Assembly: GCA_024276825.1 (NCBI GenBank)
Contig: JAJRWI010000003.1
Coordinates: 1-64,000, forward strand
Direction of reading: 5' to 3'
DNA: 64,000 nucleotides
Source of the DNA: an archaeon
Lineage (GTDB): Archaea > Asgardarchaeota > Thorarchaeia > Thorarchaeales > Thorarchaeaceae
Positions 325 to 57,134 of this stretch are shown here, one piece after another (within the stretch, counting starts at the first letter, position 1; each line of letters begins with the position of its first letter). The notes beneath the pieces are model-generated. The model was given only the letters and a program-made list of their open reading frames with translations. It did no database searches and was not told the DNA's origin. The position numbers and the translations under genes are program-made.

Positions 325-354
325 TCAACATCAGACTCCCTGATGTTGGGGAAA
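325..354 (+). other. 16S rRNA mini-intron 1 (30 nt, BHB)
   Basis: Interrupts GGAATCCCTA|GTA; central helix TCCC/GGGA with 3-nt bulges TAT and AAG; 9-bp hairpin CAACATCAG-ACTCC-CTGATGTTG. Confidence 0.9.
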
Positions 355-497
355 GTATCCGCGTGTCACTATCGCGCGGAGAATCTGTCCCTGCTTCTTG
401 CACACACCGCCCGTCGCTCCATGCGAGCTGGTCTGGGGTGAGGCGTCGTCCATTGGGCGATGACGAATCTTGGGCCGGCAAGTAGGGAGAAGTCGTA

Positions 498-527
498 ATC
501 GTGTCAGACTCCCTGACACGACGGAAA
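498..527 (+). other. 16S rRNA mini-intron 2 (30 nt, relaxed BHB)
   Basis: Interrupts AAGTCGTA|ACAAGG; hairpin TCGTGTCAG-ACTCC-CTGACACGA; central helix GTCG/CGGA (3 of 4 pairs); boundary can slide 1 nt. Confidence 0.88.
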
Positions 528-603
528 ACAAGGTATCCGTAGCGGAAGCTGCGGATGGATCACCTCCTACGTTGCCTAAAAGGCAAGAAGTGTAGACTGA
601 CGG

Positions 604-660
604 GGTGGGTGTAGATAAGGGATTTACCCTCGTGCCCTGCTGAGCCACCCTATTATTTTT
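604..660 (+). terminator. Hairpin plus T-tract after 16S
   Basis: GGGTGG...CCACCC stem followed by TATTATTTTT; no tRNA-Ala or 23S follows. Confidence 0.5.
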
Positions 661-959
661 GCAGAAGTCGACCAAGGCTTATGATAGCTTCGAACTACTA
701 CAGAAGGAAGATCGAGAGAGAGTATGGGAGAATGGTCAAGACGATGGCTAAGACATGAGACAAAAGAATAGAATGGCAATAAACTCGGATTGTGTCATTT
801 TCGGGCCCTGAGTTGCTCAATCCCAAGCATATTCATGTTTTATCGTATTTTGAAACACTACATCGTTTTTCATTATGTCAATCCTGACAATTATGATAAC
901 ATCAAACATCTTTATTACATCAGAATCTAATGGTTCAAACTGGTGTAAGATGATAAGAG

Positions 960-1868
960 ATGAGAGTTTCTAAGTATGTGTTGTTTGTATTGACAGTTCT
1001 TCTACTTGTTCAGTGTCAAATAAGTTACAGTGGATTACAAGTAAATACTTCAATTGATGGGGCCAGTTTCAGGTATACTTGCTCATCACAGACCAATAAT
1101 GTCACAATGATTGTAGATGATGAAATGGTTCTCTTTCTTGGTGATGATGTGTGGCAGACGATCAACCAGAACTCGTATTATTCGGGTCTTTTGGATAACG
1201 GGACTGTGGTCGGTCTACTGGAGCAATATGAGAGAGAACTCCTCTTCATCACTCGGACTCCGTGGAATGATTATGTGATTATAGTCGGGATGAATGAAAC
1301 CTTCTTTGTGGAGATGATAATAGAGTGCACGTTCAATTACACTCACATAGAATCAGTTGACAATATATATGTGATAGCTGGGGGAGAATACATCTTATCT
1401 CTGAGAACTGCACTCTCTACAGCCATGAGTGCCAATGATACATTGAACTTGGAGATGATTGCTTGGGACAGGAGTCAGGAGGCGAGATCTCCTCTCAGAG
1501 CATATCTATGGTCATATGCCTACACCAATCATTCCATCCTGTCCATTGAGGAGAACCCACATGTGACACATTGGTCAAATAGTAACGCCTCCGAGATGCT
1601 TTATGATACACACTGGGAGATCATCACCACAACTAATATTGCTCGCTTAGTGGCCAACCCCAATGAAGACAAATGGGATGTTGAGATGTTTCCATCTATG
1701 ACTGACATCTTTGTGTCGCTGGACGGGGAACTGATTCAGATACTCTCTGAACTCGAGCCAGTTGAGAGGAGTTTGGACCCAATCATGTTTGTAGTTGGCA
1801 GTGCAATTTTGACAGTGGGTATCATCTCATTGATAATATACTTGAGAAAATGGAGAGCTAATGAATGA
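960..1868 (+). CDS. Hypothetical secreted, C-terminally membrane-anchored protein
   Basis: N-terminal hydrophobic signal, many NxS/T sequons, C-terminal TM helix followed by RKWR. Confidence 0.75.
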   Translation: MRVSKYVLFVLTVLLLVQCQISYSGLQVNTSIDGASFRYTCSSQTNNVTMIVDDEMVLFLGDDVWQTINQNSYYSGLLDNGTVVGLLEQYERELLFITRTPWNDYVIIVGMNETFFVEMIIECTFNYTHIESVDNIYVIAGGEYILSLRTALSTAMSANDTLNLEMIAWDRSQEARSPLRAYLWSYAYTNHSILSIEENPHVTHWSNSNASEMLYDTHWEIITTTNIARLVANPNEDKWDVEMFPSMTDIFVSLDGELIQILSELEPVERSLDPIMFVVGSAILTVGIISLIIYLRKWRANE

Positions 1869-2399
1869 ACATAATAGACTCCCAGATTACAGGCAATTGG
1901 CCTTTGAATGTCGTGGTTCATCAATGCAATATATGAAATGGATAGATATTATCACTCGGAGATTGTGGGCGTAATGCATTGATCTCAAGGCGCGTATTTG
2001 AGAGTATAATTGTAGGTGGGAATCACAATAATGATTGATACAGTATTAGTCCGTGCACGTGCATTCACTCAAATTCTCGGCTATGCCATAGAAGTATACA
2101 AACATGAATGCATGGGCGTACTGTTGGGGACACGTTTACTACAACTGGAAAAATAGTAATCAATTCTGTAGTGGCGTTGCAGAGTGCGGATAGACAATTC
2201 ACATCTGTCGCGCCAAGACAGCACAGATACGAGCGAATAACTGATGTTCTCCTGCTTAAAGATGGGACTGCTCGCAGAAAGTTTTTCTTCATGGATTATC
2301 GCTATTATGAAGGCTTTGATTTCTCAACAATTCAGCCAGACATCAATCGGGATTTTGAAACTTGCGCGCAACCCACTGGGTGAGTGTCAAATCAGACAC

Positions 2400-2792
2400 T
2401 TAATACTCCTCAATATTAAGGCCAGGGATTCTTTGAAAGTGTTTTACATTCTTCGTGAGAATCGGTTCATTATTGCTGATTACAATTCCTGCAATCATTG
2501 AGCCTTCTGGATCTATTATTTCACCATTCTTAATCAGTTCGCCATATATCTTCCCAGCTAGTGCTGCGGATTCTGCATCAAGGTCCATTATTCCCCATGA
2601 CTTCAAGATTTCCATGATTCTGTTCTTTTCAGATATTGGTTTCTTTGTCAGACTTATTCCCACAAACAGCTTGAAGATGGATGGCGTGGAGATACTGGTC
2701 GCAATGGATTCAGCCTCCATCTTCTTAATCTTGGACACTGTTGGCACTCTTCCCTGAAGCAGGTCAATTATGAATGATGTGTCCAGTATCAT
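2400..2792 (-). CDS. vapC: VapC PIN-domain toxin (two catalytic acids substituted)
   Basis: MILDTSFIID, MIAG and TKNVKHF motifs; overlaps the upstream antitoxin. Confidence 0.9.
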   Translation of the reverse strand: MILDTSFIIDLLQGRVPTVSKIKKMEAESIATSISTPSIFKLFVGISLTKKPISEKNRIMEILKSWGIMDLDAESAALAGKIYGELIKNGEIIDPEGSMIAGIVISNNEPILTKNVKHFQRIPGLNIEEY

Positions 2793-3027
2793 TATTTCCC
2801 AACTCCCCTATCAGTCTACTTATCCGTTTCCTGCTTCTTGAACGCAGAGCTGCAATTGTGGTTTCAAGAATCTCTCCATCCTCATCACTCAAGACTCTTG
2901 CAAGCTCGCTCAATCTCTTTCTTGATGTGAGTCGGTTGATGACATCGCTGAAGCTCTCACCGGGTTTTTTCATTGCTTTTAGTCTGGCATAGGCCTCATC
3001 AGAAACGGATATTGTCTTGTTTCCCAT
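2764..3027 (-). CDS. vapB: VapB-type antitoxin (COG1753-like)
   Basis: KTISVSDEAYARLKAMKKPGESFSDVINRL signature. Confidence 0.9.
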   Translation of the reverse strand: MGNKTISVSDEAYARLKAMKKPGESFSDVINRLTSRKRLSELARVLSDEDGEILETTIAALRSRSRKRISRLIGELGNNDTGHIIHN

Positions 3028-3104
3028 GTGTATGTGTATATGTATGTATGCTTATAAATTCGTTCTGAGGCCAATCTATAAACTTAGGACGAGTAGGATT
3101 TCTG

Positions 3105-3392
3105 ATGATTATAGTATGGATTGAGCACTTTCTGACACCTAGTGCAAAACAGATGTTTGCCGATTGGATTACCGATGTGGGGAGAGCACTGGCAAACATT
3201 GACGGCTTTGTTTCAATCCGACAACTGACTCCAATTGACAGCTCAAATGAATATCATCTATTACTGGAATTTGAGAGCCTTGATCTTCTAAGAGTGTGGT
3301 CGTCAAGCAAGACACATGATGATCTTCTTGAGAGACTTAAGCCATATCGGACAAGAAAGCATCAATCTAGAGTTTTTATGTGTAAAAAGTAG
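3105..3392 (+). CDS. Antibiotic biosynthesis monooxygenase (ABM) family protein
   Basis: DGFVS...LEFES..L..W..S..H pattern. Confidence 0.75.
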   Translation: MIIVWIEHFLTPSAKQMFADWITDVGRALANIDGFVSIRQLTPIDSSNEYHLLLEFESLDLLRVWSSSKTHDDLLERLKPYRTRKHQSRVFMCKK

Positions 3393-3435
3393 GCTTTAGT
3401 CAACTGGCCATTAATAATGGAGTGTAAACCTCAGT

Positions 3436-4275
3436 TCATAGATAGTAAAAACCTGTTTCCATTCCCTTTCTCTCCCCGTATCTTATTGCGACCTTTGCAA
3501 GAAAGAAGAATACAAAGAGTTCTATTATCAGAACAATCCACTCCAATGTCAAGGCAAATGGCATAGAACTTCCGAACTCCATAAGGATTGGAGTTGTTCC
3601 CAACACATGAACTCGCAATAGGTCTATGCCAAATACATTAGGTAGCGCAAGAGCGATATACATTAGAATGGGCGGAAATGTCTGAACAGGCACATAAGTC
3701 CCCCCCAGAAACTGAAATGTGATAGATAGCACGCCAAATAGTGATGATACCTTTCGATACTTCAGCACAAGCGAACTGAAAATGGCTCCCATTTGAACCA
3801 GTACAAGAATTGAGAGAAAAATTGCTGCGAGACCAAGTATCAAGTTAAGACTGGAGAATCCCAGTCCTACAAACATCAAAGCAAATGCAAACATTGGAAT
3901 GAAGAAGATCATGTTTGTCGCTGCTACTCCCAGCGCATTTCCGACAATGAACCAATACTTTGAGATTGGGCAAGTAAACGAGTATTCCAGTTTACCAAGT
4001 TCCATGTCACTCGCCAAGGTTATAGAAGACTCCCAGAGCCCGACATTGATGAACGGTACAAAGGCTATTCCAAGGAACATAAATGCGGCGACGTTTGTTG
4101 TACCCACTGCTTGATTAACTGTTGATACGTCAATGACTGCAAGAAAGACCAGATAAAAGGCAAGAGAGAGAACCTGTGAGATCACACTACCTATAAAGTT
4201 CAATCTATACTTTGTCATGTGGCGAACTCGTCGCCATGCTACAGCATATGCAACTTTAAGTCCCGAAACCTGCAT
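3436..4275 (-). CDS. ABC-2 type transporter permease
   Basis: Six TM segments, ELGKLEY and GTYVP motifs; coupled to the ATPase gene. Confidence 0.9.
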   Translation of the reverse strand: MQVSGLKVAYAVAWRRVRHMTKYRLNFIGSVISQVLSLAFYLVFLAVIDVSTVNQAVGTTNVAAFMFLGIAFVPFINVGLWESSITLASDMELGKLEYSFTCPISKYWFIVGNALGVAATNMIFFIPMFAFALMFVGLGFSSLNLILGLAAIFLSILVLVQMGAIFSSLVLKYRKVSSLFGVLSITFQFLGGTYVPVQTFPPILMYIALALPNVFGIDLLRVHVLGTTPILMEFGSSMPFALTLEWIVLIIELFVFFFLAKVAIRYGERKGMETGFYYL

Positions 4276-5216
4276 TAGGCATCCCCCGCAATTTTAGCAA
4301 AAGCATCCTCTAATGATGGTTCAACCATTGAAACAAAAGCATTCACACCATTTTTCTCAAGGATGTCTACGACTTGTCGAATGGCTGAATATGGACTATC
4401 AGATTGGATTCTAATCTCAGTATTCTTATTGACCACTGTTATATTACCTATTGAGGAAAACTCAGTTATTATAATATCATCAAAAGGGCCACCGCGTACT
4501 ACAACGCTTTCAAGTCTCATTCCTTTTTGTTTGAGTTCTTGGGGAGTTCCTTCAAATACCTTCTTTCCTCGATTGATGAAGACTAGTTTGTCACAAATAT
4601 CCTCGAGTTCCTTCAGATTATGTGATGTGATAACCATGGTTGCATTGTGTTCATGTACATATTCCTTAATCAGATGTCTGACTCTTCTAGCTATTAGGAC
4701 ATCCAAGCTCTTACTAGGTTCATCTAAAAAGGCAATCTTAGGATAATGCAAAAGTGCTCTAAGAACCACAAAGGCTTGTTTCTCGCCCCCTGAGAGTGTA
4801 ATGAAGTGTTGGTCAAGTCGATCTTCCATCCCAATCTGATGCGCAAAATCATCAAGTCTTCTGACTGATGTGTCAGCTTTAAGTCCTCTCAACCATCCAA
4901 AATATTTTGCATTCTCACGTGGACTCAACCTGTAGTATAGAGAGCGCTCGGTATCTTGGCCAGCATATCCAATAACCTCTCGTATTTTCTGTGGTTCCCT
5001 CCCAATTTCATATCCTGCCACAGTAATTTGTCCCGAGGTTGGACTGAGAAGTGTTGTCATCATGCGAATAAGTGTTGTTTTACCAGCACCATTCGCTCCA
5101 AGGAGACCTACTATTGATCCGTTCTCAACATCAAATGATACATTGTCTACTGCTATTATCTCTCTTGTACCATGAAACAGTTTTGTGACGTTCCTGACTG
5201 AAACTGCATAATCCAT
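4275..5216 (-). CDS. ABC transporter ATP-binding protein
   Basis: GANGAGKTT Walker A, LSGGEKQ signature, FLDEP Walker B. Confidence 0.95.
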   Translation of the reverse strand: MDYAVSVRNVTKLFHGTREIIAVDNVSFDVENGSIVGLLGANGAGKTTLIRMMTTLLSPTSGQITVAGYEIGREPQKIREVIGYAGQDTERSLYYRLSPRENAKYFGWLRGLKADTSVRRLDDFAHQIGMEDRLDQHFITLSGGEKQAFVVLRALLHYPKIAFLDEPSKSLDVLIARRVRHLIKEYVHEHNATMVITSHNLKELEDICDKLVFINRGKKVFEGTPQELKQKGMRLESVVVRGGPFDDIIITEFSSIGNITVVNKNTEIRIQSDSPYSAIRQVVDILEKNGVNAFVSMVEPSLEDAFAKIAGDA

Positions 5217-5218
5217 GA

Positions 5219-5620
5219 TTATAATACATCCTCTTTTCCAGATACAGAAACACTGAGCTGTTCTATTGCAGATATCAAATCATTGACCTTTTTCCTGTCA
5301 ACAAGTTCATAGTGGGCCCATCTACTTTTCCTCTCAGCAGTGACTAGACCATTGGTTCTCAAGACACTCAAGTGATGTGATGTGAGTGTCTGATCCATCT
5401 CAAGTGCCATTGAGATCTCGCATACACACAAGGGACTAGTACCCAGTAGGAGTTTCAAGATTCGGACTCTCTTTGTATCAGACACCATTCTTAGAATCTT
5501 CTCTACCCCCTCTATATCTTTGAGTCTTGACAGTTCCCTTAATTTTGTAATGTGTTCTGTCGCACTCGAACACACACACCTTTTGGGTTTGGAACTGATG
5601 GCGGCTTCAATCTGTTCCAT
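5219..5620 (-). CDS. ArsR/SmtB family regulator
   Basis: LCVCEI and SHHLSVLR..GLV motifs. Confidence 0.9.
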   Translation of the reverse strand: MEQIEAAISSKPKRCVCSSATEHITKLRELSRLKDIEGVEKILRMVSDTKRVRILKLLLGTSPLCVCEISMALEMDQTLTSHHLSVLRTNGLVTAERKSRWAHYELVDRKKVNDLISAIEQLSVSVSGKEDVL

Positions 5621-5631
5621 GATAAAACCTC

Positions 5632-5667
5632 ATATGAATGATGATTAATATGAATGACGATACATAT
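5632..5667. promoter_or_regulatory. Two overlapping ArsR/SmtB-type operator boxes
   Basis: ATATGAA-N6-TTAATAT (5632-5651) and ATATGAA-N6-TACATAT (5648-5667) just upstream of the regulator. Confidence 0.6.
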
Positions 5668-5699
5668 AATAATATCGGTCAGAACAGGTCATTCACTCA

Positions 5700-5852
5700 T
5701 CATTCATATTCGTCATTCAGCTCGTAATGCTCCAGATCAATCTTGAATATCAGTTCAAGAAGTTCCTTCTTGGTCAATCTGACAGTTTCGAGGTATATGC
5801 GTGCCTGAAGCTCTTCGAGATCATCTTGTAGGCCAAATTTGACTATGGACAA
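5700..5852 (-). pseudogene. Short antitoxin-like remnant (50 aa, TTG start)
   Basis: Hand translation MSIVKFGLQDDLEELQARIYLETVRLTKKELLELIFK...; no toxin follows. Confidence 0.4.
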
Positions 5853-5931
5853 CTGCACCGCTTGGTAGCCAATTCATTATGCAGAATGTATGTAATTGGC
5901 AGACTACCAGACAGAGAGGGCTGTGTAATCA

Positions 5932-6390
5932 CTACCAGACAAAGATAGTATCATGATGTTTTTCATAGCAGTCTTTACAGACTCTCAACGGGAACTCGGG
6001 CTTCTTGCAGTATAGGATCTCGGACTCAATCTCACCGTTTCTGACATCCAAACTTGAACCACATAGATTGCAGCAGTAGACAGCCTCTATTTGAAAGTGT
6101 ACCTCCCGAGATGGACACTTGTAGATCCGCATGTTGCGTTTCGGGCTTCCCAACTCCCGCATGTCACCAAACACACGTAGGGAGTGGATGATAGGATACA
6201 TTCCAACAAAGCTCTCGGAGCAGATCCCTTCTGGAGTCCTCCATGAGAACTCAAACCTCTCCCCCACCTTGTGGTTGGCTCGACAATTTCCATCCTTTAT
6301 GATTGTGACGACAAATCTCACCACTTCGTCCCAGTGCTCTCGTAATCTCACAACCTCTCTATCTGGAGTCTTGTCTGCTGACATATGCAT
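5932..6390 (-). CDS. TIGR04076-like Cys-rich protein with C-terminal Zn-finger
   Basis: GNC.A.HKVG.RF, TPEGIC and CP motifs plus CxxC pairs. Confidence 0.7.
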   Translation of the reverse strand: MHMSADKTPDREVVRLREHWDEVVRFVVTIIKDGNCRANHKVGERFEFSWRTPEGICSESFVGMYPIIHSLRVFGDMRELGSPKRNMRIYKCPSREVHFQIEAVYCCNLCGSSLDVRNGEIESEILYCKKPEFPLRVCKDCYEKHHDTIFVW

Positions 6391-6667
6391 CGCTGACCTT
6401 ATGTCATATCTTGAGTTATGCTTTACTGTTGGCCGAGGATTTGTTCTAGCATGTCAATCATAATTAATTATGCTTCAATCATCAGAAATCCGTTCTCAAA
6501 AATATCTGCGACAACAGTAAACATCAGTAATGCTGATTACAGTTGGAGCGCCAAACACCAAGGCTTACTGTTTGCTTTCGATTCATAGGCCAGTTTCAGT
6601 GTATTCATTTTTCGCATTAATCCAAAAAAGCGATAGAGTGATCTTGAACCAACGAGGTCTATGACGC

Positions 6668-16684: not shown

Positions 16685-16686
16685 AT

Positions 16687-20128: not shown

Positions 20129-20267
20129 GCGGAGGTTGCCGAGCCTGGTCAATAGCGTGTCTAACGCTGGCTACAGGCGCAGGACTTTGTTCCACAGGCT
20201 TCTGTGGGGCGTCCAAAGGATCCTGTCTCGTAGGAGTTCGCGAGTTCAAATCTCGCCCTCCGCACCA
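20129..20267 (+). tRNA. tRNA-Leu(TAG) with two BHB introns (20153-20174 in the D-loop; 20188-20216 at 34/35)
   Basis: Removing the introns gives GCGGAGG...CAGGA-CT-TAG-GA-TCCTG, a long variable arm, TTCAAAT and CCA. Confidence 0.92.
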
Positions 20268-20710: not shown

Positions 20711-20840
20711 GCCGGGGTGTCCGAGCGGCTAAGGAGGCGGTCTCGAAACCCTCTAAGGCGACATAACCGCTACCTTCGGGTGCATGGGTTCGAAAGATTC
20801 CAAGTATTTTGGGATGCCGAGAGTCCCATCCCCGGCGCCA
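20711..20840 (+). tRNA. tRNA-Ser(CGA) with two introns (20748-20764 at 37/38; 20795-20823 at 59/60)
   Basis: GCCGGGG/CCCCGGC acceptor, GCGGT/ACCGC stem, long variable arm, GCCA end. Confidence 0.92.
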
Positions 20841-25010: not shown

Positions 25011-26260
25011 CCAAAGAGGTCCTTGGCAATCTTACTCAGCCGGGCATCTTCCTCCAGAATCAGTCCAATCTGACGCTTGCTGACTGCAAGCCGGATCTTC
25101 TTTGTACGGCCATATCTTCCCTTCGATATGATTGTCGTGTTAATCAGTCCCAACATATCGAGCTCGCTGATTAGGTCACTGACTCTCCGTTGGGTGAGTG
25201 TGTCAAGTGACAATGCAGATGCTATCTTCTCATAGGCGTTGTAGCACTCACCTGTGAATATCTCGCGTTTCCCACTGTTGGCCAAGGCGTAGACTGCAAA
25301 GAGGACGACTCGTGACTGTAGGGGTAGTGTTTTGACTGTTTCCGTGATCGTGTCGCGTTCAATGAGCTTTTGCCCCTCACGTACATGTTCTTGGGTTACC
25401 TTTTCGTCCCCTCTCCTCTCGGCAAGCTCACCAGCTGTACGTAGCAGGTCAAGAGCTCTTCTAGCATCACCATGTTCCTGAGCAGCCAGTGCCCCAACCA
25501 GATTGATAACACCCTCGTCTTCAATTGCACCAGGATTGAATGCGAGTTCAACCCTCTGCTGGAGAATCCCCCGCAGTTCCATTGCATTATATGGTGGAAA
25601 TACAACTTCTTCCTCACCCAGAGTTGACAGCACCCTTGGATCAAGCATCTCCTTAAACTTCAGGTCATTGCTTATTCCTATAATGGAGATCCTGCTGTTT
25701 TCCAGTTCACCATTCATCCTTGTGAGCCCATATAGAATGTCGTTGCCTTGGCTAACATCTCGTTTCACAAGGCTGTCAACCTCATCAAGGACCACAATCA
25801 AAATGTTTGGTTCGCTATCAAGCTTTCTCTTCAGTATGGAGCGTATTTCATCGGTCGGAAGTCCCGTAAATGGCACCTCTGACCCATCAGGCATTCTTGC
25901 GTTTATTGCCTCACACAGTGACCTGAGGACACGATAGTTTGTTCCAACGATCCTACAGTTCACAAAGGCCTTCAGCGGTGGTTTAACATCACTCTGTTGT
26001 GCCTTTTCGACAAGCAGGTCTAGGACATATCTTGCAACCACAGTCTTTCCAGTCCCGGTTTTTCCATAACAAAGGATGTTGGACGGTGGGGCGCCCCTCA
26101 GGGCAGGGCCAAGAATAGACCCAATCCGATTCATCTGCTCATCACGAAAGGGGAGTTCATCCGGGACATAAGTCGGTCGCAGGGCGTTGCGGTCTTTGAA
26201 TATTGCTTGACCTTGCAGGAACTTGTCAAAGAGCTTGTCGAGTTTTGGTTGTTCTGGCAC
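25004..26260 (-). CDS. cdc6: Orc1/Cdc6 initiator (GTG start)
   Basis: GKTGTGKT, LDEVD, HGDARRA and GRYGRT motifs. Confidence 0.97.
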   Translation of the reverse strand: MPEQPKLDKLFDKFLQGQAIFKDRNALRPTYVPDELPFRDEQMNRIGSILGPALRGAPPSNILCYGKTGTGKTVVARYVLDLLVEKAQQSDVKPPLKAFVNCRIVGTNYRVLRSLCEAINARMPDGSEVPFTGLPTDEIRSILKRKLDSEPNILIVVLDEVDSLVKRDVSQGNDILYGLTRMNGELENSRISIIGISNDLKFKEMLDPRVLSTLGEEEVVFPPYNAMELRGILQQRVELAFNPGAIEDEGVINLVGALAAQEHGDARRALDLLRTAGELAERRGDEKVTQEHVREGQKLIERDTITETVKTLPLQSRVVLFAVYALANSGKREIFTGECYNAYEKIASALSLDTLTQRRVSDLISELDMLGLINTTIISKGRYGRTKKIRLAVSKRQIGLILEEDARLSKIAKDLFGQ

Positions 26261-43387: not shown

Positions 43388-45376
43388 TTGTCAGAAGACA
43401 AGATTACAGTTACATTAACCGAAGAGAGAAAGTTCCCACCTCCTGAGAGCTTCGTGAGGAAGGCGTACATCAAGTCCGCCGAGGAACGCGAGAAGCTCTG
43501 GAAGCAGTCTATTGAGGACCCTGATGGGTTCTGGCTCAAGGCTGCAAAGGAACTGTGCTACTGGAAAAAGGAACCGACTATTGGGTTCAACTGGATCAAT
43601 CCCGAACGCGCCGAGTTCCGCTGGTTCGAGGATGGCATTACCAACATGGCTTACAACTGTCTTGATAAGAACATTGAGAAGGGTAAGGGCGATCAGATCG
43701 CTCTCATCTGGCAGGGTGAGCCCCTCGAAGAACACAAGACATATACATACAAGGAACTCCGCGATGAGGTCAATAAGGCTGCTAACGTCCTGAAGAGCTT
43801 GGGCCTCAAGAAGGGTGACAGAGTCACTATCTACCTGCCCATGATCCCAGAACTCGCAATTATCATGCTTGCCTGCACGAGAATTGGTGTCATTCACAGT
43901 ATTGTATTCGGAGGCTTCAGCTCAGACTCGCTCAAGGACAGAATTCTCGATTGTGAGGGCAAGGTGCTCGTCACTGCTGATGGTTACTACAGAAGTGGAA
44001 AGACCATCGAGCAGAAGAAGGGTGCAGATGTCGCTCTCAAGGAAACCCCCAACGTTGAGAAGGTCCTCGTTGTTAAGCGTCTTGGAATTGATGTCCCATG
44101 GACAGAGGGACGTGATGTCTGGTATCATGAACTCATGGAGAATGCCAGCACCGAGTGCGAAACCGAGTGGCTCAATGCAGAGGACCCACTATTCATCCTC
44201 TATACATCAGGCTCAACAGGTAAGCCAAAGGGTGTGCTTCACACCGTTGGAGGATACATGGTGTACACCACTCATACATTCCTTCATATCTTCGACTGGC
44301 ATGAGGGCGACGTCTACTGGTGTACTGCTGACATCGGTTGGATTACTGGCCACTCGTATATCATCTATGGGCCACTGTCTGCTGGTGCCACTACTATGAT
44401 GTTCGAGGGCGTTCCAACATACCCTGATGTCGACCGCTTCTGGCTCGAAGTGGAGCGCTGGAAGGTCAATCAGTTTTACACAGCACCCACTGCAATTCGC
44501 GCACTCATGCGATATGGAGATGAGCCCGTTCTCAAACACGATCTGTCAACCCTCAACCTGTTGGGCACAGTCGGTGAGCCCATCAATCCAGAGGCATGGT
44601 TGTGGTACCACAAAGTCATCGGTAAGGAGAAATGTCCTATAGTAGACACCTACTGGCAAACTGAAACTGGTGGCGTAATCATCACTCCATTGCCTGGAGC
44701 AACCCCAACAAAGCCCGGGTCATGCACAAGGCCATACTTTGGGGTGGACCCTGTGATCGTTGACGAGTCTGGACAGCCCGTGGGTCCGAATGAGGGAGGT
44801 TACCTGTGCATCAAGAGGCCTTGGCCGGGTCTAATGAGGACTGTGTACGGTGACCACGACCGATTTGTGAACACCTACTGGGTGCAGTACAAAGATCCAG
44901 ACACTGGCAAACCCATGTACATGACTGGAGACGGTTCTAGGTTTGATGAGGACAATTATTTCTGGGTAATGGGACGAATTGATGATGTGCTGAAGGTATC
45001 AGGGCACAGACTGGGTACAGCAGAGATCGAGAGTGCACTAGTGGCACATCCTGCAGTTGCCGAGTGTGCAGTAGTCGGTTTCCCACATGACATCAAGGGT
45101 GAGGACATCTACGTATTCGTGACCCTGAAGGCAGGAGTGGAGAAGACCGAGGAACTCAAGCAGGAGCTGAAGAAGCATGTGAGATCAGAGATTGGTCCAA
45201 TCGCGACCCCAGCAAAGATCCAGTTCGCAGACGCCCTGCCAAAGACACGTTCAGGGAAGATTATGCGAAGGATTCTGAAGAAGATTGCTGCTGGTCAGAT
45301 TGACGATCTCGGTGACACAAGCACCCTAGCAGACCCCACAGTGGTCGAAACCCTCATCAAAGAGAGAATCGAGTAG
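43388..45376 (+). CDS. acs: Acetyl-CoA synthetase (AMP-forming), TTG start
   Basis: YTSGSTGKPKG, DTYWQTETGG and PKTRSGKIMRR motifs. Confidence 0.97.
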   Translation: MSEDKITVTLTEERKFPPPESFVRKAYIKSAEEREKLWKQSIEDPDGFWLKAAKELCYWKKEPTIGFNWINPERAEFRWFEDGITNMAYNCLDKNIEKGKGDQIALIWQGEPLEEHKTYTYKELRDEVNKAANVLKSLGLKKGDRVTIYLPMIPELAIIMLACTRIGVIHSIVFGGFSSDSLKDRILDCEGKVLVTADGYYRSGKTIEQKKGADVALKETPNVEKVLVVKRLGIDVPWTEGRDVWYHELMENASTECETEWLNAEDPLFILYTSGSTGKPKGVLHTVGGYMVYTTHTFLHIFDWHEGDVYWCTADIGWITGHSYIIYGPLSAGATTMMFEGVPTYPDVDRFWLEVERWKVNQFYTAPTAIRALMRYGDEPVLKHDLSTLNLLGTVGEPINPEAWLWYHKVIGKEKCPIVDTYWQTETGGVIITPLPGATPTKPGSCTRPYFGVDPVIVDESGQPVGPNEGGYLCIKRPWPGLMRTVYGDHDRFVNTYWVQYKDPDTGKPMYMTGDGSRFDEDNYFWVMGRIDDVLKVSGHRLGTAEIESALVAHPAVAECAVVGFPHDIKGEDIYVFVTLKAGVEKTEELKQELKKHVRSEIGPIATPAKIQFADALPKTRSGKIMRRILKKIAAGQIDDLGDTSTLADPTVVETLIKERIE

Positions 45377-45436
45377 TACTAGAAGAATAAGAGAGAGCCC
45401 TCTGGGCCTCTCAACTCTATTTTATTGTGTTTTTTA

Positions 45437-45619
45437 GGTTGCGCGTGGATGCATAGAACTTACACAAAGTTGGACACCAATCAGACAGCTGTTTAATAGA
45501 TAGCATCGAGAAATATAGGAGCTTAAGAAACATAATCAGATTCAAGACTGAATCTGAATCCAGTGTTGATACTGAGAGGACTGGATGCATTGTCCAATAT
45601 TGTCCAACTTAATATGAAC
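45437..45619 (+). repeat. Dispersed intergenic repeat, copy B, with a 10-bp internal inverted repeat
   Basis: AAGTTGGACA (45467-45476) and TGTCCAACTT (45601-45610); homologous to 9810-9967. Confidence 0.6.
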
Positions 45620-45641
45620 AATGTTGACTGATGTTAGAAGA

Positions 45642-46373
45642 TCATTGTTCGAACATTTTGGTCTTCAGTAAGGCCTTTCCGACCGTGACCCCAATGATCG
45701 TGGCAAGCATCACTTTTAGAGGGGTGATGAACCCTGCACCCATCCATATGAGTTGCAGTTGTTCAATTGTCAGCCCATAGAATAGTGAGAATGTCATGCA
45801 GGGTACAAAGATGAATACTCGGAGGAGGATATCGGATTCAAGACCAATGACAATAGCAAAGATTAGGGCAAACAGTGTCTTCCGCTCCTTGCTTATAGAC
45901 ATGTGATCATTGATTTTCGAGGTTGTTATTATTGTAAACAGGATGACAAAGCAATAGCCAAGCAGGATGTCCCATATGCCCCATAATGGGAGGGCCCATG
46001 CCACAGGACTAAGAGAATAACCAAGGAGAAGCAGGGAGTAGATGGTCAAGACTGGTTTCCATCGTTCTTGATAAACAAGTCCCGCCATTAGTGTCCCGAG
46101 CGGCGCCCCAAGCATGAAGACGAGCTCATAGGGGTCTCGAAAGTAGATAAGATGTCCGAGGAAACCACCAAAGCCCACTGAAACCGCCCCAAGCACGGGC
46201 CCAAGGACTATGCCAATTAGTGGGCTCAGCAGGAACAGCCACGAGTCCCACACACCACTATAGAAACCCGGAATGATAGGGGTGGAGTCCAGTACCACCA
46301 CGAGAGCTGTTGAAACTGCAATTGTTGACACTGTTTTACTCTTTGTGCTTAGATCAATTGGCGACATGTACAA
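45642..46373 (-). CDS. ECF transporter S-component-like membrane protein
   Basis: PLIGIVLGP..G motif, multiple TM segments. Confidence 0.7.
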   Translation of the reverse strand: MYMSPIDLSTKSKTVSTIAVSTALVVVLDSTPIIPGFYSGVWDSWLFLLSPLIGIVLGPVLGAVSVGFGGFLGHLIYFRDPYELVFMLGAPLGTLMAGLVYQERWKPVLTIYSLLLLGYSLSPVAWALPLWGIWDILLGYCFVILFTIITTSKINDHMSISKERKTLFALIFAIVIGLESDILLRVFIFVPCMTFSLFYGLTIEQLQLIWMGAGFITPLKVMLATIIGVTVGKALLKTKMFEQ

Positions 46374-46410
46374 AGTCTCCGGGACAATGATGCAATCTTG
46401 TTGGCAGTCC

Positions 46411-46734
46411 TTATCGAAACCTGCTCAGCATTCTTCTGAATCGAGACTTTCGCTTCTTTTTACGTTTTAATTCGTCTGGAATGGGAATACCATATCTCTT
46501 TGCAAGAACAAGCACAGTCATCTTAGCAGCAAGATTGAACTTGGAGTAGTTAATGAGAAACCTTTGAAGGGCGGACTCAATGTCATCCTCAAGCCAGTCG
46601 GTAGTATTGTCATCAAGGAGCGCCACGCCTGAGTTCAAGCAGATCTCCGCCATTTTCTCCCTCCCATAGATTCCAAGTCCACGTGCAACAAGGGTGGACA
46701 CCAGTTCATCAATGCTTTCACGACTTACTCCCAT
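46411..46734 (-). CDS. Hypothetical protein with basic C-terminal tail
   Basis: Overlaps the ODP gene end, preceded by a GGAGG RBS. Confidence 0.75.
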   Translation of the reverse strand: MGVSRESIDELVSTLVARGLGIYGREKMAEICLNSGVALLDDNTTDWLEDDIESALQRFLINYSKFNLAAKMTVLVLAKRYGIPIPDELKRKKKRKSRFRRMLSRFR

Positions 46735-47459
46735 ACGCCAACCTCCAAGTTCCATAGTGTGTCAATCGCCTCGGGAATCTTCTCCTTGGTAATTATTGAC
46801 CCATGTTGTGGACATATCAGTTCGATATCTAGACCCTTTATCTTTCTCAAAAAATTATGAACATGTCTTTGGTCAGACAGGTAGGGCTGGGAGAAGACCT
46901 TCATGGCCTCCAGATAATATTCGTTAGCATATAATGACCAGTCAATTGAAAATCCCGCAAAAATATCTGATGAGAATAGAATCTTTTCTTTTGTGTCATA
47001 AGTGACCATGGCTCCAGGAAAATGCAAATAGGGTGTTGTGAGAAACAACAGCTCTCGGCCTTCCTCTCCAATCTCAATGCTCTCTCCATCACTAACAGAA
47101 GTCACTTCAGTATGAACACCATAATAGGGAATGAACAGTGATGTGCGTTCGGTTGTCACAATCTCAAAGTTATTCACACCTAAGGCCTCTTCAATAAGGG
47201 GTATTGCACCACAGAGGTCGGGGTCTTGATGATGCACAATCACCATAGTGATCTTTTTCAAAGGGATAATGGATTCTATTTTCCTCTTGACCCAGCTCCA
47301 ATGTTCGTCTAGACGTGAGCCAGGGTCAAACAAGACCACCTCATCGCCTTCAATAAGCAAGTAGGGATTGTTTGAAAACCCAGCATGGAAATCGGGCCAT
47401 CCGACCCACCATACGCCAGGCTTGATCTCTACCGCCTTCTCGGGATCTATTTTTATCAA
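46725..47459 (-). CDS. MBL-fold oxygen-binding di-iron protein (ODP)-like
   Basis: NPYL, DPGS, HHQDPD, HFPG...TYD, FSSD and PQHG motifs; no flavodoxin domain. Confidence 0.85.
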   Translation of the reverse strand: MIKIDPEKAVEIKPGVWWVGWPDFHAGFSNNPYLLIEGDEVVLFDPGSRLDEHWSWVKRKIESIIPLKKITMVIVHHQDPDLCGAIPLIEEALGVNNFEIVTTERTSLFIPYYGVHTEVTSVSDGESIEIGEEGRELLFLTTPYLHFPGAMVTYDTKEKILFSSDIFAGFSIDWSLYANEYYLEAMKVFSQPYLSDQRHVHNFLRKIKGLDIELICPQHGSIITKEKIPEAIDTLWNLEVGVWE

Positions 47460-50723: not shown

Positions 50724-50733
50724 TTGTATTGCT

Positions 50734-51552: not shown

Positions 51553-52423
51553 TTCGACTCCTCCATGCTGCACCAATGATGTCTTGGACACTCTTGAAAC
51601 CCTGTTCATCCAAGTATCTTGCAACCCCATTCTTTATCTTGGTGAACACGTCGGTCCCCTGCAACAGTGCTGTGCCAATCTGTATCGCGCTTGCTCCTGC
51701 CAGATGCATCTCTACTGCATCCATCCATGAGGTCACCCCCCCAACCCCAATTATCGGTATTGAGAGAGCACCAGAGAGGTCATAGACACAACGGACCGCA
51801 ATGGGAAACACGGGTGGCCCTGAAAGGCCCCCCACCAGATTGCCAAGAACTGGTCTTTTCTGATATATGTCAATCTTCATCGCTCTGAGTGTATTTATTG
51901 CAACTACTGCATCAGCACCCGCCTCCTCTGCTGCAATACCCACTGAAACATAATCAGATGCATTTGGGGTAATCTTTGCAAACAGGGGGCAGTCAACAAT
52001 ATCCTTTACCGTACTTACAAACTCAAATGTCATGTTGGGATCATGTGCGATCTGACCTATCTGGGCATGTGGGCAGGACAGATTCAACTCGATGGCGTCT
52101 GGATTAAGATGAACTGCCCTTTCTGCCACTGCCGAAGCCTCTTCTATTGTGTTTCCAAAGATGCTGAGAACAATTGGGACATTGAACTCATGTAGGTTGC
52201 CCATTTCCTCGGCAAAGTTGTCGATTCCGGGATTTGTCAGACCCACTGCATTCAAGAGACCACCATGCGAATGTGTGATGATCGGACCATGATGCCCCTT
52301 TCTTGGAGATAGGCCTACAGATTTTGTCACTATAGCATCTGCGCCTGATGCTGCCACTTTTCGGATAATGGACCTTGTCACACCCAGAATTCCTGATGCC
52401 AGCCAATATCCCTGAATCTTCAA
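51542..52423 (-). CDS. pyrD: Dihydroorotate dehydrogenase B, catalytic subunit
   Basis: NAVGL.NPG, ELNLSCP and GGLSG motifs. Confidence 0.96.
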   Translation of the reverse strand: MKIQGYWLASGILGVTRSIIRKVAASGADAIVTKSVGLSPRKGHHGPIITHSHGGLLNAVGLTNPGIDNFAEEMGNLHEFNVPIVLSIFGNTIEEASAVAERAVHLNPDAIELNLSCPHAQIGQIAHDPNMTFEFVSTVKDIVDCPLFAKITPNASDYVSVGIAAEEAGADAVVAINTLRAMKIDIYQKRPVLGNLVGGLSGPPVFPIAVRCVYDLSGALSIPIIGVGGVTSWMDAVEMHLAGASAIQIGTALLQGTDVFTKIKNGVARYLDEQGFKSVQDIIGAAWRSRNGH

Positions 52424-52575
52424 TGTTTCACCTAGAACTCCTCAATCACTGGTTGGTAATAAGGTCAATGGCATTACATTTATGGTGTATGAGGGAGCAT
52501 TTCTGATTGCTATTATATCTGATTCGCATAACTTTTTACCTCTGCAATACCTCTGGAGATTGGAGGCAATACTCT

Positions 52576-53799
52576 GTGCCATTGTACATAACACATTGTG
52601 CATTTGGAATATTCATACTAGATGAGAATGACCAAGTCATTCTAAAGCATTTGACATATCCAGATGTGGAAACAACTGTTGAATACCTAGATGCAGTAAG
52701 CCAGAATGTTCCCATACCTGAGCTGAAGGAGATCATCGGTCAGACAGGCTCGGAGGAGATTGTTGCTGATAACAGGTCATTGGCCCGCCTGATCTCACAA
52801 CTCAGTTCAATTCCTGTTCGTTATGATTCACGTCCCACTCAGACCAAGATGTTCAGGTCAACAATCGAAACCTATCTGATCAAGGACAAGATTATTGAGA
52901 GGCCTGAGGAGGCCCAGCACTTTCTAAGAGAGGTTGCAATCAGTCTGGCCAAGAGAACAATAATCTCTGCAAGCGAGGAACGCGACATTCTAGTTAAACA
53001 GGCCATTGATGCTATTGATGAGATTGACAAAACACTAAATGCTCTCTCCATGAAGCTCAAGGAGTGGTATTCACTTCATCATCCTTCACTCAGCAAGATT
53101 GTCGATGATAATGAAACCTATGCCAAGATTGTGAGTCTTGGGGGAAAGCAGAGGATTTCAGAGGAGGCGTTAAGAAGTGCAGGGCTGTCGCCCATATTGG
53201 CTCAGAAGATTCTCACTGATATGGAAAATGATGCTGGCGCAGAGTTCACCCCTTCGGACTTGGGCACAATGAAGGGACTCGCCAAAAGGATTGTCGGACT
53301 GTATGAGTTTCGTCATGACCTTGAGGATTATGTCACTAGTCTCATGCAGGTGGTCGCACCAAACATCTCATCACTGGTCAGACCTATGGTCGGTGCACGG
53401 CTCATAAGCATGGCTGGATCTTTAAGAGAACTTGCTCGAAAGCCATCATCCACAATTCAGGTGTTTGGGGCAGAGCGTGCCCTGTTTCGAAGCTTGAAGA
53501 CAGGTGCAGACCCACCAAAGCACGGGGTGATTTACCAGTCCCCCGAGGTCCATACTGCTCCATATTGGCAGCGTGGCAAGATTGCCAGAGCCCTTGCAAG
53601 TGCTCTATCCATTGCTTCAAGGATTGATGCTTATTCGGACCGTGATCTAGGTGACTATCTGAGAGAGAAGCTTGAAAGGAGGATTTTGGAGATCAAACAG
53701 CAAAATCCTGATGCACCACCACCAAAACAAAAAAGCAAGCCTAGAAGACCTCAGCGTAAAGGGGCCAAGCGCAAGCGGCGCGGCGGGAGGAGGAGATAG
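52576..53799 (+). CDS. nop5: C/D RNP protein Nop5 (Nop56/58)
   Basis: EWY..H.P, PSSTIQV.GAE.ALF and PKHG.IY motifs. Confidence 0.96.
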   Translation: MPLYITHCAFGIFILDENDQVILKHLTYPDVETTVEYLDAVSQNVPIPELKEIIGQTGSEEIVADNRSLARLISQLSSIPVRYDSRPTQTKMFRSTIETYLIKDKIIERPEEAQHFLREVAISLAKRTIISASEERDILVKQAIDAIDEIDKTLNALSMKLKEWYSLHHPSLSKIVDDNETYAKIVSLGGKQRISEEALRSAGLSPILAQKILTDMENDAGAEFTPSDLGTMKGLAKRIVGLYEFRHDLEDYVTSLMQVVAPNISSLVRPMVGARLISMAGSLRELARKPSSTIQVFGAERALFRSLKTGADPPKHGVIYQSPEVHTAPYWQRGKIARALASALSIASRIDAYSDRDLGDYLREKLERRILEIKQQNPDAPPPKQKSKPRRPQRKGAKRKRRGGRRR

Positions 53800-54497
53800 T
53801 GACTCAGGTACAGCCACACAGGTTCACAGGAGTTTTTCTGATCACTGATGATGCTCGTACATCATTAGCAACAAAGACCCTGATTCCAGGGCAGTCCGTT
53901 TATGGAGAAAAATTGATTCGTCAAGGAGATGGGGAGTATCGGTTATGGTCACCAAGACGATCCAAACTTGCTGCTGCTATTCAGAAGAATATGTCCTCGA
54001 TGCCCATACAACAAGGGTCAAGGGTGTTATATCTTGGTGCTTCATCGGGCACAACCGTCAGTCATGTATCAGACATTATTGGTGAAAAGGGGGTTGTGTA
54101 CGCGGTCGAGTTCTCACCCCGAGTGGGTCGTGAGTTGGTCGGACTTGCAGAAACACGAACGAACATCATCCCCATTATTGCTGATGCTCGACATCCGGAG
54201 AGGTATTCATCACTTGTTCTAGGTCCCATTGATGTGGTGTATCAGGACGTGGCTCAGCCGGACCAAGCAAGAATATTTGTTGAGAACATTAGGCACTTCA
54301 GCTCCTTCGGTTGCTGGGGCCTGTTTGCAATCAAGGCCCGAAGCATAGATTCAACAACTTCAGTGGAGGACATCTATAAGAGTGAAATGGCATTCTTAAA
54401 TGAGCATGGTGTGCAAGTGGTTGAAGTAACAGATCTTGACCCATTAGAGAAGGATCATGTGATGGTCCTTTGTAGAGTATCGGAGGGCTTTAAGTGA
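53799..54497 (+). CDS. flpA: Fibrillarin
   Basis: VYGE, RSKLAA, LYLGA.SGTT.SH.SD and DVAQPDQ motifs. Confidence 0.97.
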   Translation: MTQVQPHRFTGVFLITDDARTSLATKTLIPGQSVYGEKLIRQGDGEYRLWSPRRSKLAAAIQKNMSSMPIQQGSRVLYLGASSGTTVSHVSDIIGEKGVVYAVEFSPRVGRELVGLAETRTNIIPIIADARHPERYSSLVLGPIDVVYQDVAQPDQARIFVENIRHFSSFGCWGLFAIKARSIDSTTSVEDIYKSEMAFLNEHGVQVVEVTDLDPLEKDHVMVLCRVSEGFK

Positions 54498-54970
54498 GTT
54501 CATTTATTGAACGCATGATCGAGAGAGATATTGAGTCCATTAATGACCATCTTCCAACAGAGCGGGTGCCCCTTAGTGAACTGTTTGAGTCAAAAGATAA
54601 AGCATACAGGACAAAGAAGGGAGAGCCTTCAGTCATTCGTGACAGTGAGATTAAGATGATAATGGAACACACACCACTGGAATACCATGGTCATGTTCGG
54701 CTCCCAATTGTACTACTTCGTCGGATCGACTTGGGCCCTGGTATCTACTCAATATCTGGGACCAAGGTTGAACTCTTCCTGATACATCATCTCATAGACA
54801 AAGAGATAGGGGGAAATGGACTTGATTGGGGCAGAATCTCAGAATGGACTCCTCAAGAACGTATTGTGCGCCCGCAGGTGCAAGTCATTCGAAGAATATT
54901 GCCCTCCGCCACCTGCATAGGCTTTGCCACACTAACAAAGACTCGTAAGAAGCATGATAGTTCTGACTGA
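54494..54970 (+). CDS. DUF61 (UPF0216) family protein
   Basis: N.HLP..R..L.EL and RLPI motifs; synteny. Confidence 0.75.
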   Translation: MSSFIERMIERDIESINDHLPTERVPLSELFESKDKAYRTKKGEPSVIRDSEIKMIMEHTPLEYHGHVRLPIVLLRRIDLGPGIYSISGTKVELFLIHHLIDKEIGGNGLDWGRISEWTPQERIVRPQVQVIRRILPSATCIGFATLTKTRKKHDSSD

Positions 54971-55036
54971 TAGTGTTATATTCCACAAAGCAAATCTCAA
55001 AAGCATATTTGTGGAAGAACACAGTGGTAATAAAGG

Positions 55037-55999
55037 ATGACGAAAGCAAGAACCAAGCTGCTAGATGAGGTCATATCCAATCTAGAGGATGCTGGGTTTG
55101 AGCTGTCATCGAAATGTGATGTGCGCCCCACATGCTTTGACCTTGTTGCTAGAAAGGATGACAAACTAATATTGATCAAGGTGCTTGATAATGTTGGAGC
55201 CCTAACAAGGGAGGACGCCATTACGCTCCAGCTTGTGGCACACTTTTTCAATGCCACCCCATTAATCATTGGTCGTAAGACAAGTAGAGGACCCTTGATG
55301 GAGGGTGTTGTTTACAAGAGATACGGGGTTTCGGCAATTGCACCGTCAAGTTTTGTGAGAATGATACATGAGGAACAGATGCCTCGCGTATTCAGTCAAA
55401 GGGGTGGACGGCTTGTGGTGATTAATGGTGAGCGCCTGAGAGAAGCACGTCTGTCTAAGAGCATGACACAGGAGGAGCTTGCAGGCTATGTGAGGGTTTC
55501 AGCGCGTGTGATTCTCGCCTATGAGCATAGTGAGATGGACGCCAGCATTGATGTGGCACAGGAGCTCGAACGGGTCTTAGAAACAGACCTGATAATTCCA
55601 ATCGATCTGATGAGCAGAACTGTCACTCAAGAGCCAGTTGCAACCCCGCAGGTTTCGGACAATATCTCACATCTCGAACAAAGAGTTAACGAGTTTTTCG
55701 AGAAACTTGGCATGAGGGTCTTATGGACTGATAGGGCACCATTCCATGTGGCTGCGAAGGAGAAGAGTCGTCCACTGATATCGGGAGTCGGATCATTAAA
55801 GAGTTGGACTCTGAAAAAGCGCATTGATATACTCCGTAGTGTGTCAGATGTCACCAAATCCGATGCAGTGCTAATTGTGGAGGAGGGAATGGCTCAAGAG
55901 TCTGTTGCAGACCTCCCTGTGATACGACAGGTCGAGCTTGAAGAGATTGACAAGTCACAGGAACTACGAAAGATAATCGCTGAGCGTTCTGGGCAGTGA
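55037..55999 (+). CDS. Archaeal HTH transcriptional regulator (COG1395)
   Basis: CFDL.AR, L.IKVL.N, Y.RYG, XRE HTH and APF motifs. Confidence 0.9.
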   Translation: MTKARTKLLDEVISNLEDAGFELSSKCDVRPTCFDLVARKDDKLILIKVLDNVGALTREDAITLQLVAHFFNATPLIIGRKTSRGPLMEGVVYKRYGVSAIAPSSFVRMIHEEQMPRVFSQRGGRLVVINGERLREARLSKSMTQEELAGYVRVSARVILAYEHSEMDASIDVAQELERVLETDLIIPIDLMSRTVTQEPVATPQVSDNISHLEQRVNEFFEKLGMRVLWTDRAPFHVAAKEKSRPLISGVGSLKSWTLKKRIDILRSVSDVTKSDAVLIVEEGMAQESVADLPVIRQVELEEIDKSQELRKIIAERSGQ

Positions 56000-56203
56000 A
56001 CTTCAGAGATGGAAAAGTTGTGCAAAGTTGTCATACTGGTCAGAATTGGAGTCGCGATCAAAAGAATGGGTGTGTTCACATTCACTCTCAAGACACCCGG
56101 CGGGTGGTGACACTTTTGGGGGAAGATCTGAACGCATGATCCTTGTATAGATAAGCTCATCTTCCAATGACAGGTTTGAATGAGTTCAGGTTGTTAGTGA
56201 CAT

Positions 56204-56896
56204 CTAGAAGTTGTCAAGGCCCATCTGACCAGATCTCATCTCATCTTGAATTCTCTTTATTGATGCCCATGATTTTCGAACAAAACTAGGAAGTTCTCCT
56301 TCTTCGCTCAACAGTTGTCGTATGAAGGCGATGGACTTGGGGTCTGATGGATATCCGGAACCAAAGTCCCCGTAGCGGTCGTATAGGTCAGCGACTCTAG
56401 CATCACGTTCAACTTTTGCAATGATTGCAGCAGCTGATACCACAGGGTACCTGGCATCTGCCTTATGTTCGGATATGAATCGTGTTCCAAGGGAAGCAAG
56501 ACCACTCTTCTCTGCCACCAGACGACCAAATCGTTCGGCATTAACATCGGCAGCATCCATGTATACCTCTTCTGGCTTGAGTTCCTTGACAATAAAGGCG
56601 AAGTTGATGGTTTCAATCTCGTTCATTGTGTACCCACTCTTCCTCAGAGCGTCAATCTCTGCTGCTGTTATTGTCTTAATCTCTATCCTTGCTGCCAGCC
56701 TTCGAATTGATTTGTCCAAGTTTCTACGGCGTTTGGGTGATAGTACTTTAGAGTCCCTAAGCCCTAAAGATTCCAACCTCTTGATGTCCCCCTTCTCAAA
56801 CAACACACCACAGATTATCATAGGACCAATCATGGGGCCCCTGCCAGCCTCATCAAGACCTGCAACTCCCCTGATCCTAGTGTTCTTGGAACTCAT
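56204..56896 (-). CDS. rnhB: Ribonuclease HII
   Basis: GLDEAGRGP, DSK.L, EHKAD and GSGYPSDP motifs. Confidence 0.97.
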   Translation of the reverse strand: MSSKNTRIRGVAGLDEAGRGPMIGPMIICGVLFEKGDIKRLESLGLRDSKVLSPKRRRNLDKSIRRLAARIEIKTITAAEIDALRKSGYTMNEIETINFAFIVKELKPEEVYMDAADVNAERFGRLVAEKSGLASLGTRFISEHKADARYPVVSAAAIIAKVERDARVADLYDRYGDFGSGYPSDPKSIAFIRQLLSEEGELPSFVRKSWASIKRIQDEMRSGQMGLDNF

Positions 56897-56997
56897 GGCT
56901 ATAATAATATTGGCAGCTCCTTATTAACCAAGTCGAAACCTTCATATCGGAAAAATTAATGTGCACGTTAGGTTGCAAGGCCAGAAACACAGGCTTT

Positions 56998-57134
56998 GGG
57001 GACGTGGCCTAGTTGGCATGGCGACGGGCTCCAGATCTTATGATTCACGGGGTCATATCAGTAGAGACTCGTCGATCGTGGGTTCGAGACCCACTCACAC
57101 TCCGTGATGGGTGAAAATCCCACCGTCCCCACCA
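56998..57134 (+). tRNA. tRNA-Trp(CCA) with two introns (57035-57066 at 37/38; 57089-57117 at 59/60)
   Basis: GGGGACG/CGTCCCC acceptor, ACGGG-CT-CCA-GA-CTCGT, GTGGG-TTCGAGT-CCCAC after intron removal, ACCA end. Confidence 0.92.

Follow-up and report, generated by a model that had tools for sequence, protein, structure and literature searches.

Predicted hairpin mini-introns with a common tip in the 16S rRNA and tRNA-Trp genes of a Thorarchaeaceae genome

Short hairpin introns (<50 nucleotides, nt) with a bulge-helix-bulge (BHB) motif interrupt the 16S ribosomal RNA (rRNA) genes of Thermoproteales, Desulfurococcales and Aigarchaeota at 13 loci between positions 374 and 1391 (Jay and Inskeep 2015, PMC4496867). 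Families of transposed transfer RNA (tRNA) introns with 70-90% identity are described for the Thermoproteales (Sugahara 2008 and Fujishima 2010, as cited in bioRxiv 10.64898/2026.10.13.758758 and PMC4090602), and heavily interrupted tRNA genes have been found in other Asgard classes (PMC11291895; bioRxiv 10.64898/2026.10.13.758758). Here we analyze positions 1 to 64,000 of contig JAJRWI010000003.1 from the genome assembly GCA_024276825.1 (Asgardarchaeota, Thorarchaeaceae), a stretch referred to below as the window. Two inserts in its 16S rRNA gene and one in its tRNA-Trp gene share a single hairpin design and a conserved hairpin tip, and we examined these three inserts in the window, in the rest of the 2.9-Mb genome and in related genomes. 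The features concerned are the following:

1 to 568, plus strand: 16S rRNA gene, 3' part (Rfam archaeal small-subunit (SSU) rRNA model, cmscan 366 bits, model positions 974-1478)
325 to 354, plus strand: 16S mini-intron A, 30 nt, after E. coli-equivalent position ~1346; orthologues in three relatives, with covarying stems
498 to 527, plus strand: 16S mini-intron B, 30 nt, at ~1499/1500 and adjoining the decoding site; orthologues in at least eight relatives, absent in a congener
56998 to 57134, plus strand: tRNA-Trp(CCA) gene, single copy, with an encoded CCA end and two introns
57089 to 57117, plus strand: tRNA-Trp T-loop (59/60) mini-intron, 29 nt, tip TCAC-ACTCC-GTGA, with one bulged C in the stem

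The 16S inserts resemble those of Jay and Inskeep in being patchily distributed hairpins of <50 nt that contain no open reading frame (ORF) and keep a BHB within conserved 16S sequence, and they come under the same definition. They differ in their Asgard lineage, in their uniform length of 30 nt, in the lack of a neighbouring homing-endonuclease intron to carry them and in a tip common to several sites and to tRNA introns. Only the ~908 site, occupied in relatives, coincides with one of the 13 published loci; A (~1346/1347) and B (~1499/1500), numbered by our own motif-based E. coli equivalence, lie outside them. As in the Thermoproteales families, related-looking BHB introns occupy different positions and different host RNA genes of one genome, here the 16S rRNA and tRNA-Trp genes, in a lineage whose EndA is a broad-specificity (alpha-beta)2 enzyme. 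Unlike in those families, the likeness does not reach 70-80% or more over the whole length but is limited to a 13-nt tip, and one of the hosts is an rRNA gene. The interrupted tRNA genes of other Asgard classes are similar in having several introns per gene, non-canonical D- and T-arm introns at BHB-competent sites that annotators miss, repeated gains and no identified route of arrival. The studies of those genes, however, treat tRNA only and report no shared loop motif, and the preprint among them contains neither 'rRNA' nor 'Thorarchae'. Our literature search, with most subscription journals outside its scope, turned up neither a description of mini-introns in Thorarchaeota rRNA nor one of a loop motif that rRNA introns have in common with tRNA introns. 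The inserts add to an established kind of intron, in a lineage and at sites where it is new; what goes further is a conserved hairpin tip found in rRNA and tRNA hosts alike.

Alignment of window positions 1-568 with the Rfam SSU model places two 30-nt insertions at 325-354 and 498-527. Intron A is built from one nucleotide, a 9-bp stem around an ACTCC loop, the tetranucleotide GGGA and a terminal AA; intron B has the same layout, and its 13-nt tip is identical to that of A. All three inserts carry TCAS-ACTCC-STGA and each folds into a hairpin of 9-10 bp, the stems differing from one another by compensatory changes. Exact excision of A and B yields the universal 16S sequence, as judged from the Rfam SSU alignment and from intron-less relatives. 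Removal of 57089-57117 likewise returns the T-loop of tRNA-Trp to 7 nt (TTCGAGT) between the strands of its GTGGG/CCCAC stem.

The archaeal BHB rule calls for a 4-bp central helix and a 3-nt bulge that is cut after its second nucleotide. Intron A conforms strictly, with exon TCCC and intron GGGA forming 4/4 pairs between the bulges TAT and AAG. The T-loop intron of tRNA-Trp is strict as well (TTCG/TGAA, 4/4 pairs including one G-U; bulges AGA and AAT), with the T-stem serving as the outer helix. The tetranucleotide of site-B introns in relatives reads CGAC or CGAT and pairs 4/4. When the BHB structure is laid on ten orthologous 16S introns, 96.9% of positions expected to pair do so and 11 of the 13 pairs change on both sides; the covariation score is reached by none of 500 shuffles and collapses in controls with slid partners, and RNAalifold independently predicts the same structure. 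The genome also encodes the enzymes that such introns need: two EndA paralogs of 192 and 205 amino acids (PF01974/PF02778), located on contigs C4 and C47 and each with N- and C-terminal domains, and one RtcB (593 bits). One EndA aligns without gaps, loop region included, to the catalytic subunit of the heterotetrameric Aeropyrum pernix enzyme (3p1z_B). This two-subunit arrangement agrees with the published Asgard EndA, an (alpha-beta)2 enzyme with a broad-specificity L1 loop (PMC5829648). From their sequences, the three inserts are almost certainly BHB mini-introns spliced in the manner of tRNA introns.

An earlier note, made from the sequence of this stretch, had described the three inserts, and readout of the sequence bears out their positions, their sequences and the folding of each hairpin with compensatory stem changes. 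Its view that BHB-type mini-introns of one design occur in both rRNA and tRNA hosts of an Asgard genome is supported. Two of its generalizations need narrowing. The four nucleotides before the terminal AA, said to complement the host exon in every case, do so fully in A and, with one G-U, in tRNA-Trp, but pair only 3/4 in B because of a G.A mismatch. The terminal AA itself characterizes the three introns of this genome; the orthologous introns of relatives end in GG, AC, CA or TA.

Expansion segments are a known feature of the rRNAs of Asgard archaea (Penev et al. 2020, as referenced in PMC12918454), and the 16S inserts might on that ground be taken for expansion hairpins that stay in the mature RNA. 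The inserts break the universally conserved single-stranded core, however, one beside A1492/A1493 and the other within the CUAGUAAUCG motif, and this location speaks against retained expansion hairpins. So do the exact BHB geometry with its covarying exon-intron helix, the layout held in common with tRNA introns that must be removed, and the precise presence or absence of the inserts between congeners. We therefore regard retention as highly improbable.

The distribution of the introns is that of a population peculiar to one family. Among 40 relatives, each of the two 16S introns is present in some genomes and precisely missing from others: site A is occupied in three other genomes from two genera, and site B in at least eight from several genera. 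Of the genomes in the window's own genus, one has B without A and another lacks B. This presence and absence by site among close relatives shows turnover. A covariance model of the 16S introns matches 7 of 26 genomes of the family and none of 125 from 26 further families in the phylum. Relatives carry more 30-nt introns in 16S rRNA, at ~908, at ~1386 and in helices 43 and 45, and at several sites in 23S rRNA. Their tRNA-Trp genes have mini-introns in the D-loop, the variable region and the T-loop, and in the anticodon loop a hairpin lies within a longer 37/38 intron. The T-loop intron itself is absent from tRNA-Trp in both same-genus genomes.

Could three hairpins built to one BHB layout resemble each other by chance alone? 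Two observations make the idea understandable, namely that the 30-nt layout is common to many unrelated introns and that look-alikes of the tip arise in coding sequence. The numbers are nevertheless against it. The TCASACTCCSTGA pattern has 3 matches in the window where 0.01 are expected, and 0 of 100 shuffles reach 3; by our own estimate under a uniform model, this loop with four closing pairs has a probability of ~1e-6 per layout intron. ACTCC-like loops (at most one mismatch) furthermore recur at 3 of 5 further independent 16S sites in other genomes. Chance resemblance is accordingly very unlikely. A loop logo of 24 layout-aligned mini-introns from various sites and genomes gives A in 17, C in 16, U in 21, Y in 20 and C in 21, a consensus of ACUYC, and all ten 16S introns have A-U as their second closing pair. 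Mean tip identity across sites is ~5.5 of 13 positions, compared with 3.25 for random sequence. The ACTCC trio is the extreme of this family-wide ACUYC loop preference.

Outside the tip the three introns have little in common. A and B are identical at 13/13 tip positions, the top value of 249 cross-site pairs, and at 0/10 positions of the outer stem; their overall identity of 18/30, counted position by position, is confined to the tip and the tail. The tRNA-Trp intron agrees with A or B at 11/13 tip positions and 2/10 outer-stem positions, and the exon-pairing tetranucleotides differ among all three. When searched against the genome, the covariance model built from ten 16S introns matches only the two 16S introns; against the tRNA-Trp intron it gives only a 13-nt local match (10.2 bits, E=2.2). 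Pattern and hairpin scans of the 2.9-Mb genome find no further complete hairpin with an ACTCC tip, save one look-alike in coding sequence. The stems and the exon-pairing tetranucleotide have thus diverged fully while the tip with its unpaired loop has been kept, so that the tip is most likely held by selection.

This pattern of likeness also bears on the proposal of the earlier note that an ORF-less element is spreading, here taken to mean that the hairpin was recently copied between 16S and tRNA-Trp, for example by reverse splicing with reverse transcription or gene conversion. Several observations invite such a reading: the 13-nt tips of the two 16S introns are identical; intron B matches its congener's B at 14/30 positions and the A of its own genome at 18/30 (position-wise counts); and the tRNA-Trp tip is 12/13 identical to the tip of a site-B intron from another genus. 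The absence of the T-loop intron in both congeners implies a recent gain or two losses. The reverse transcriptase that the note suggested looking for is present as an RVT_1 match on contig C5, and permits an RNA route without showing one. A copied element should nevertheless be alike over its whole length, whereas here the outer stems agree at only 0-2 of 10 positions and the tetranucleotides differ, and neither the covariance model nor the pattern scans detect more copies in the genome. Cross-site pairs from the same genome are barely more alike than pairs from different genomes (tip 6.1 versus 5.4 of 13), a preprint census finds almost no copying between Asgard tRNA genes (bioRxiv 10.64898/2026.10.13.758758), and no guide-like copy of the intron-less junctions adjoins a TnpB. 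Recent mobility is for these reasons unlikely, and a recent spread between rRNA and tRNA genes is not supported. A covariance scan of the kind the note proposed returned no further copies in this genome, and relatives revealed the patchy presence and absence it had suggested looking for. The note had also allowed that, with no further ACTCC introns, chance might account for the likeness; the genome-wide scans found none further, but an excess of 3 over 0.01 is not what chance provides. Its other suggestion, a loop kept because a protein binds it, agrees best with the data when widened to anything that binds or requires the loop.

The same comparisons apply to concerted evolution, in which independent or ancient introns would have had their tips homogenized by short-patch gene conversion within a genome. 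The 13/13 identity of the A and B tips is found only in this genome, the two sites of relatives differing at 2-6 tip positions, and the ACUYC-like loops found in this genome all end in CC (ACTCC three times, ATTCC and ACCCC). The conversion tract, however, would have to be implausibly short, only 13 nt, and to end exactly where the hairpin tip does. There is no general excess of tip identity within genomes, relatives mix loops ending in CC and UC in one genome, and a tandem duplication of the gene's own exon accounts for the ACCCC loop in tRNA-Asp. We consider homogenization distinctly unlikely.

On balance, we think it probable that the three inserts are BHB mini-introns belonging to a ~30-nt hairpin population specific to this Thorarchaeota family, and that the tip of the hairpin is under selection. 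The inserts would be transcribed within pre-16S rRNA and pre-tRNA-Trp, where the hairpin and the 4-bp exon-intron helix would present two 3-nt bulges. RtcB would join the exons and would probably also circularize the 29-30-nt intron. Members of the population would keep a fixed layout (1 + 9 bp + 5-nt loop + 9 + 4 + 2) in 16S, 23S and tRNA genes, and a large subset would share a tip in which the closing pairs Y-A-S/S-U-R surround the ACUYC consensus loop. Candidate roles for the tip are a fast folding nucleus that may present the BHB in the precursors, or a binding site that may be used by a factor in splicing or biogenesis. The most economical reading, and the most likely one, is that selection holds the tip. 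The introns may all descend from a single hairpin intron that proliferated long ago, although the data do not require it; we weight this old proliferation above both short-patch conversion and recent mobility.

Several points weigh against this interpretation. Intron B forms only a relaxed BHB, in which the GTCG/CGGA central helix has 3/4 pairs and the exon-exon helix is weak. The loops of many tRNA introns in this genome are unrelated, and the 23S mini-introns fit the loop consensus more poorly. The consensus was defined post hoc, and orthologous introns are not independent samples. The analysis found no factor that would read the tip. We infer splicing, circularization and the reason for the conservation of the tip from sequence, and reliance on such inference for splicing also counts on this side. 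A bolder version would make the ACUYC tip the recognition module of a lineage-specific trans-acting protein or RNA that either licenses the splicing of mini-introns located in the most sensitive portions of rRNA and tRNA or catalyzes their insertion. We hold this to be a tentative and rather doubtful proposal; if it were true, Thorarchaeota would host a self-propagating, ORF-less class of introns that moves between rRNA and tRNA genes.

On visual inspection, several introns resembled copies of the exons beside them. Smith-Waterman comparison of each intron with its flanks, evaluated against 2000 shuffles, was significant only for the D-loop intron of tRNA-Asp (p=0.002) and for the site-C intron of one relative (p=0.011). 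An origin by local duplication or template switching was rejected for A, B and the tRNA-Trp intron (p 0.17-0.99). In the tRNA-Asp(GTC) gene (C12:3953-4090, minus strand), the D-loop is interrupted by a 30-nt intron; its loop and 3' half repeat, in tandem and with divergence, the 5' leader and the first 20 nt of the gene. Here an intron has clearly arisen by local duplication. The RVT_1 match mentioned above lies at C5:676-1412, split across two adjacent frames on a 3.1-kb contig, and may be the remnant of a group II intron or a retron.

Homing guided by, or in collaboration with, TnpB was likewise rejected, the only junction-spanning copy of an intron-less site lying far from any TnpB. This copy, 17 nt of the spliced site-B junction (GGAGAAGTCGTAACAAG), is an exact match at C18 ~26189-26206 on the minus strand, where ~3e-4 chance matches are expected. 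It is located inside an ORF for a 256-amino-acid membrane protein flanked by ABC-transporter genes, with no TnpB nearby; the TnpB genes of the genome are on C24 and C81. At C24:44879-47110, an open frame for a 560-amino-acid TnpB-like protein (45269-46951) directly follows the 3' end of a tRNA gene (44879-44994), and its stop codon is followed by a 12-nt repeat of the 3' end of that tRNA (CTCGCTCCGGGC) and then by a hairpin.

Other candidates from the genome scans were also discarded. A 23-nt hairpin at C14:24940-24962, which is almost identical to the intron A hairpin but lacks one base pair, was rejected as an mRNA intron: it lies antisense in a conserved glycosyltransferase gene, and 40 of 40 relatives have coding sequence of the same length there. 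Its likeness to intron A is probably due to chance. A look-alike of the tip on C63 is within an intact ORF. A scan for the layout without restriction on the loop gave 180 matches versus 285 in a reversed-genome control, and these were treated as noise.

Two further introns of the window are of interest for comparison with the trio:

57035 to 57066, plus strand: tRNA-Trp canonical 37/38 intron, 32 nt, without the ACTCC tip; read from sequence and kept in relatives
20188 to 20216, plus strand: tRNA-Leu 34/35 intron, 29 nt, of the same layout, with CAG/CTG closing pairs and a GCTT tetraloop; central helix 4/4, stem 9/9

As far as its sequence indicates, the tRNA-Leu intron is a possible divergent relative of the ACTCC trio. 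Partial resemblance to the tip is also seen elsewhere in the genome's tRNA introns, which we parsed by hand and with a hairpin listing into an incomplete catalogue: tRNA-Val 37/38 has the loop ATTCC and the tRNA-Asp D-loop intron CAG-ACCCC-CTG, beside CAG-GCTT-CTG in tRNA-Leu 34/35. The tRNA-Leu (20129-20267), tRNA-Ser (20711-20840) and tRNA-Trp (56998-57134) genes contain two introns each. ARAGORN reports zero tRNAs in the window, the Rfam tRNA model leaves tRNA-Trp below its threshold, and a genome-wide search with that model fails to recover the tRNA-Leu and tRNA-Ser genes even with E up to 1. In a related genus, tRNA-Trp has at least four introns (D-loop, 37/38, variable region and T-loop 59/60), among which the loops ATTTC, TCTTC and ACTAC occur.

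The sole 16S gene is divided between the window and another contig, which holds the 5' part (C42:1-849, minus strand); model positions 829-973 are unassembled, and the gene is split between the window start and the end of C42 at its position 1. The ~908 site, which has a 30-nt intron in relatives, falls within this assembly gap, and an intron there may be the cause of the break. Downstream of 16S in the window are protein genes rather than 23S, and the 5S rRNA gene (58144-58263), ~1 kb downstream of tRNA-Trp, is linked to neither 16S nor 23S. The 23S gene of this genome contains only a 144-nt ORF-less intron (C42:62763-62906) in the peptidyl-transferase region; it is absent in several relatives, where matches run straight through.

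These results have practical consequences for the study of Thorarchaeota, as the introns interrupt the site of primer 1492R, fragment 16S assemblies and cause tRNA genes to be overlooked (ARAGORN detects 0 of at least 3 in the window). For the biology of the family, one 30-nt design and its tip are found in both rRNA and tRNA genes, and it is the tip, not the rest of the intron, that is conserved. The 5-nt loop and its closing pairs provide a mutable element with which to ask whether the persistence of these introns needs more than a BHB.

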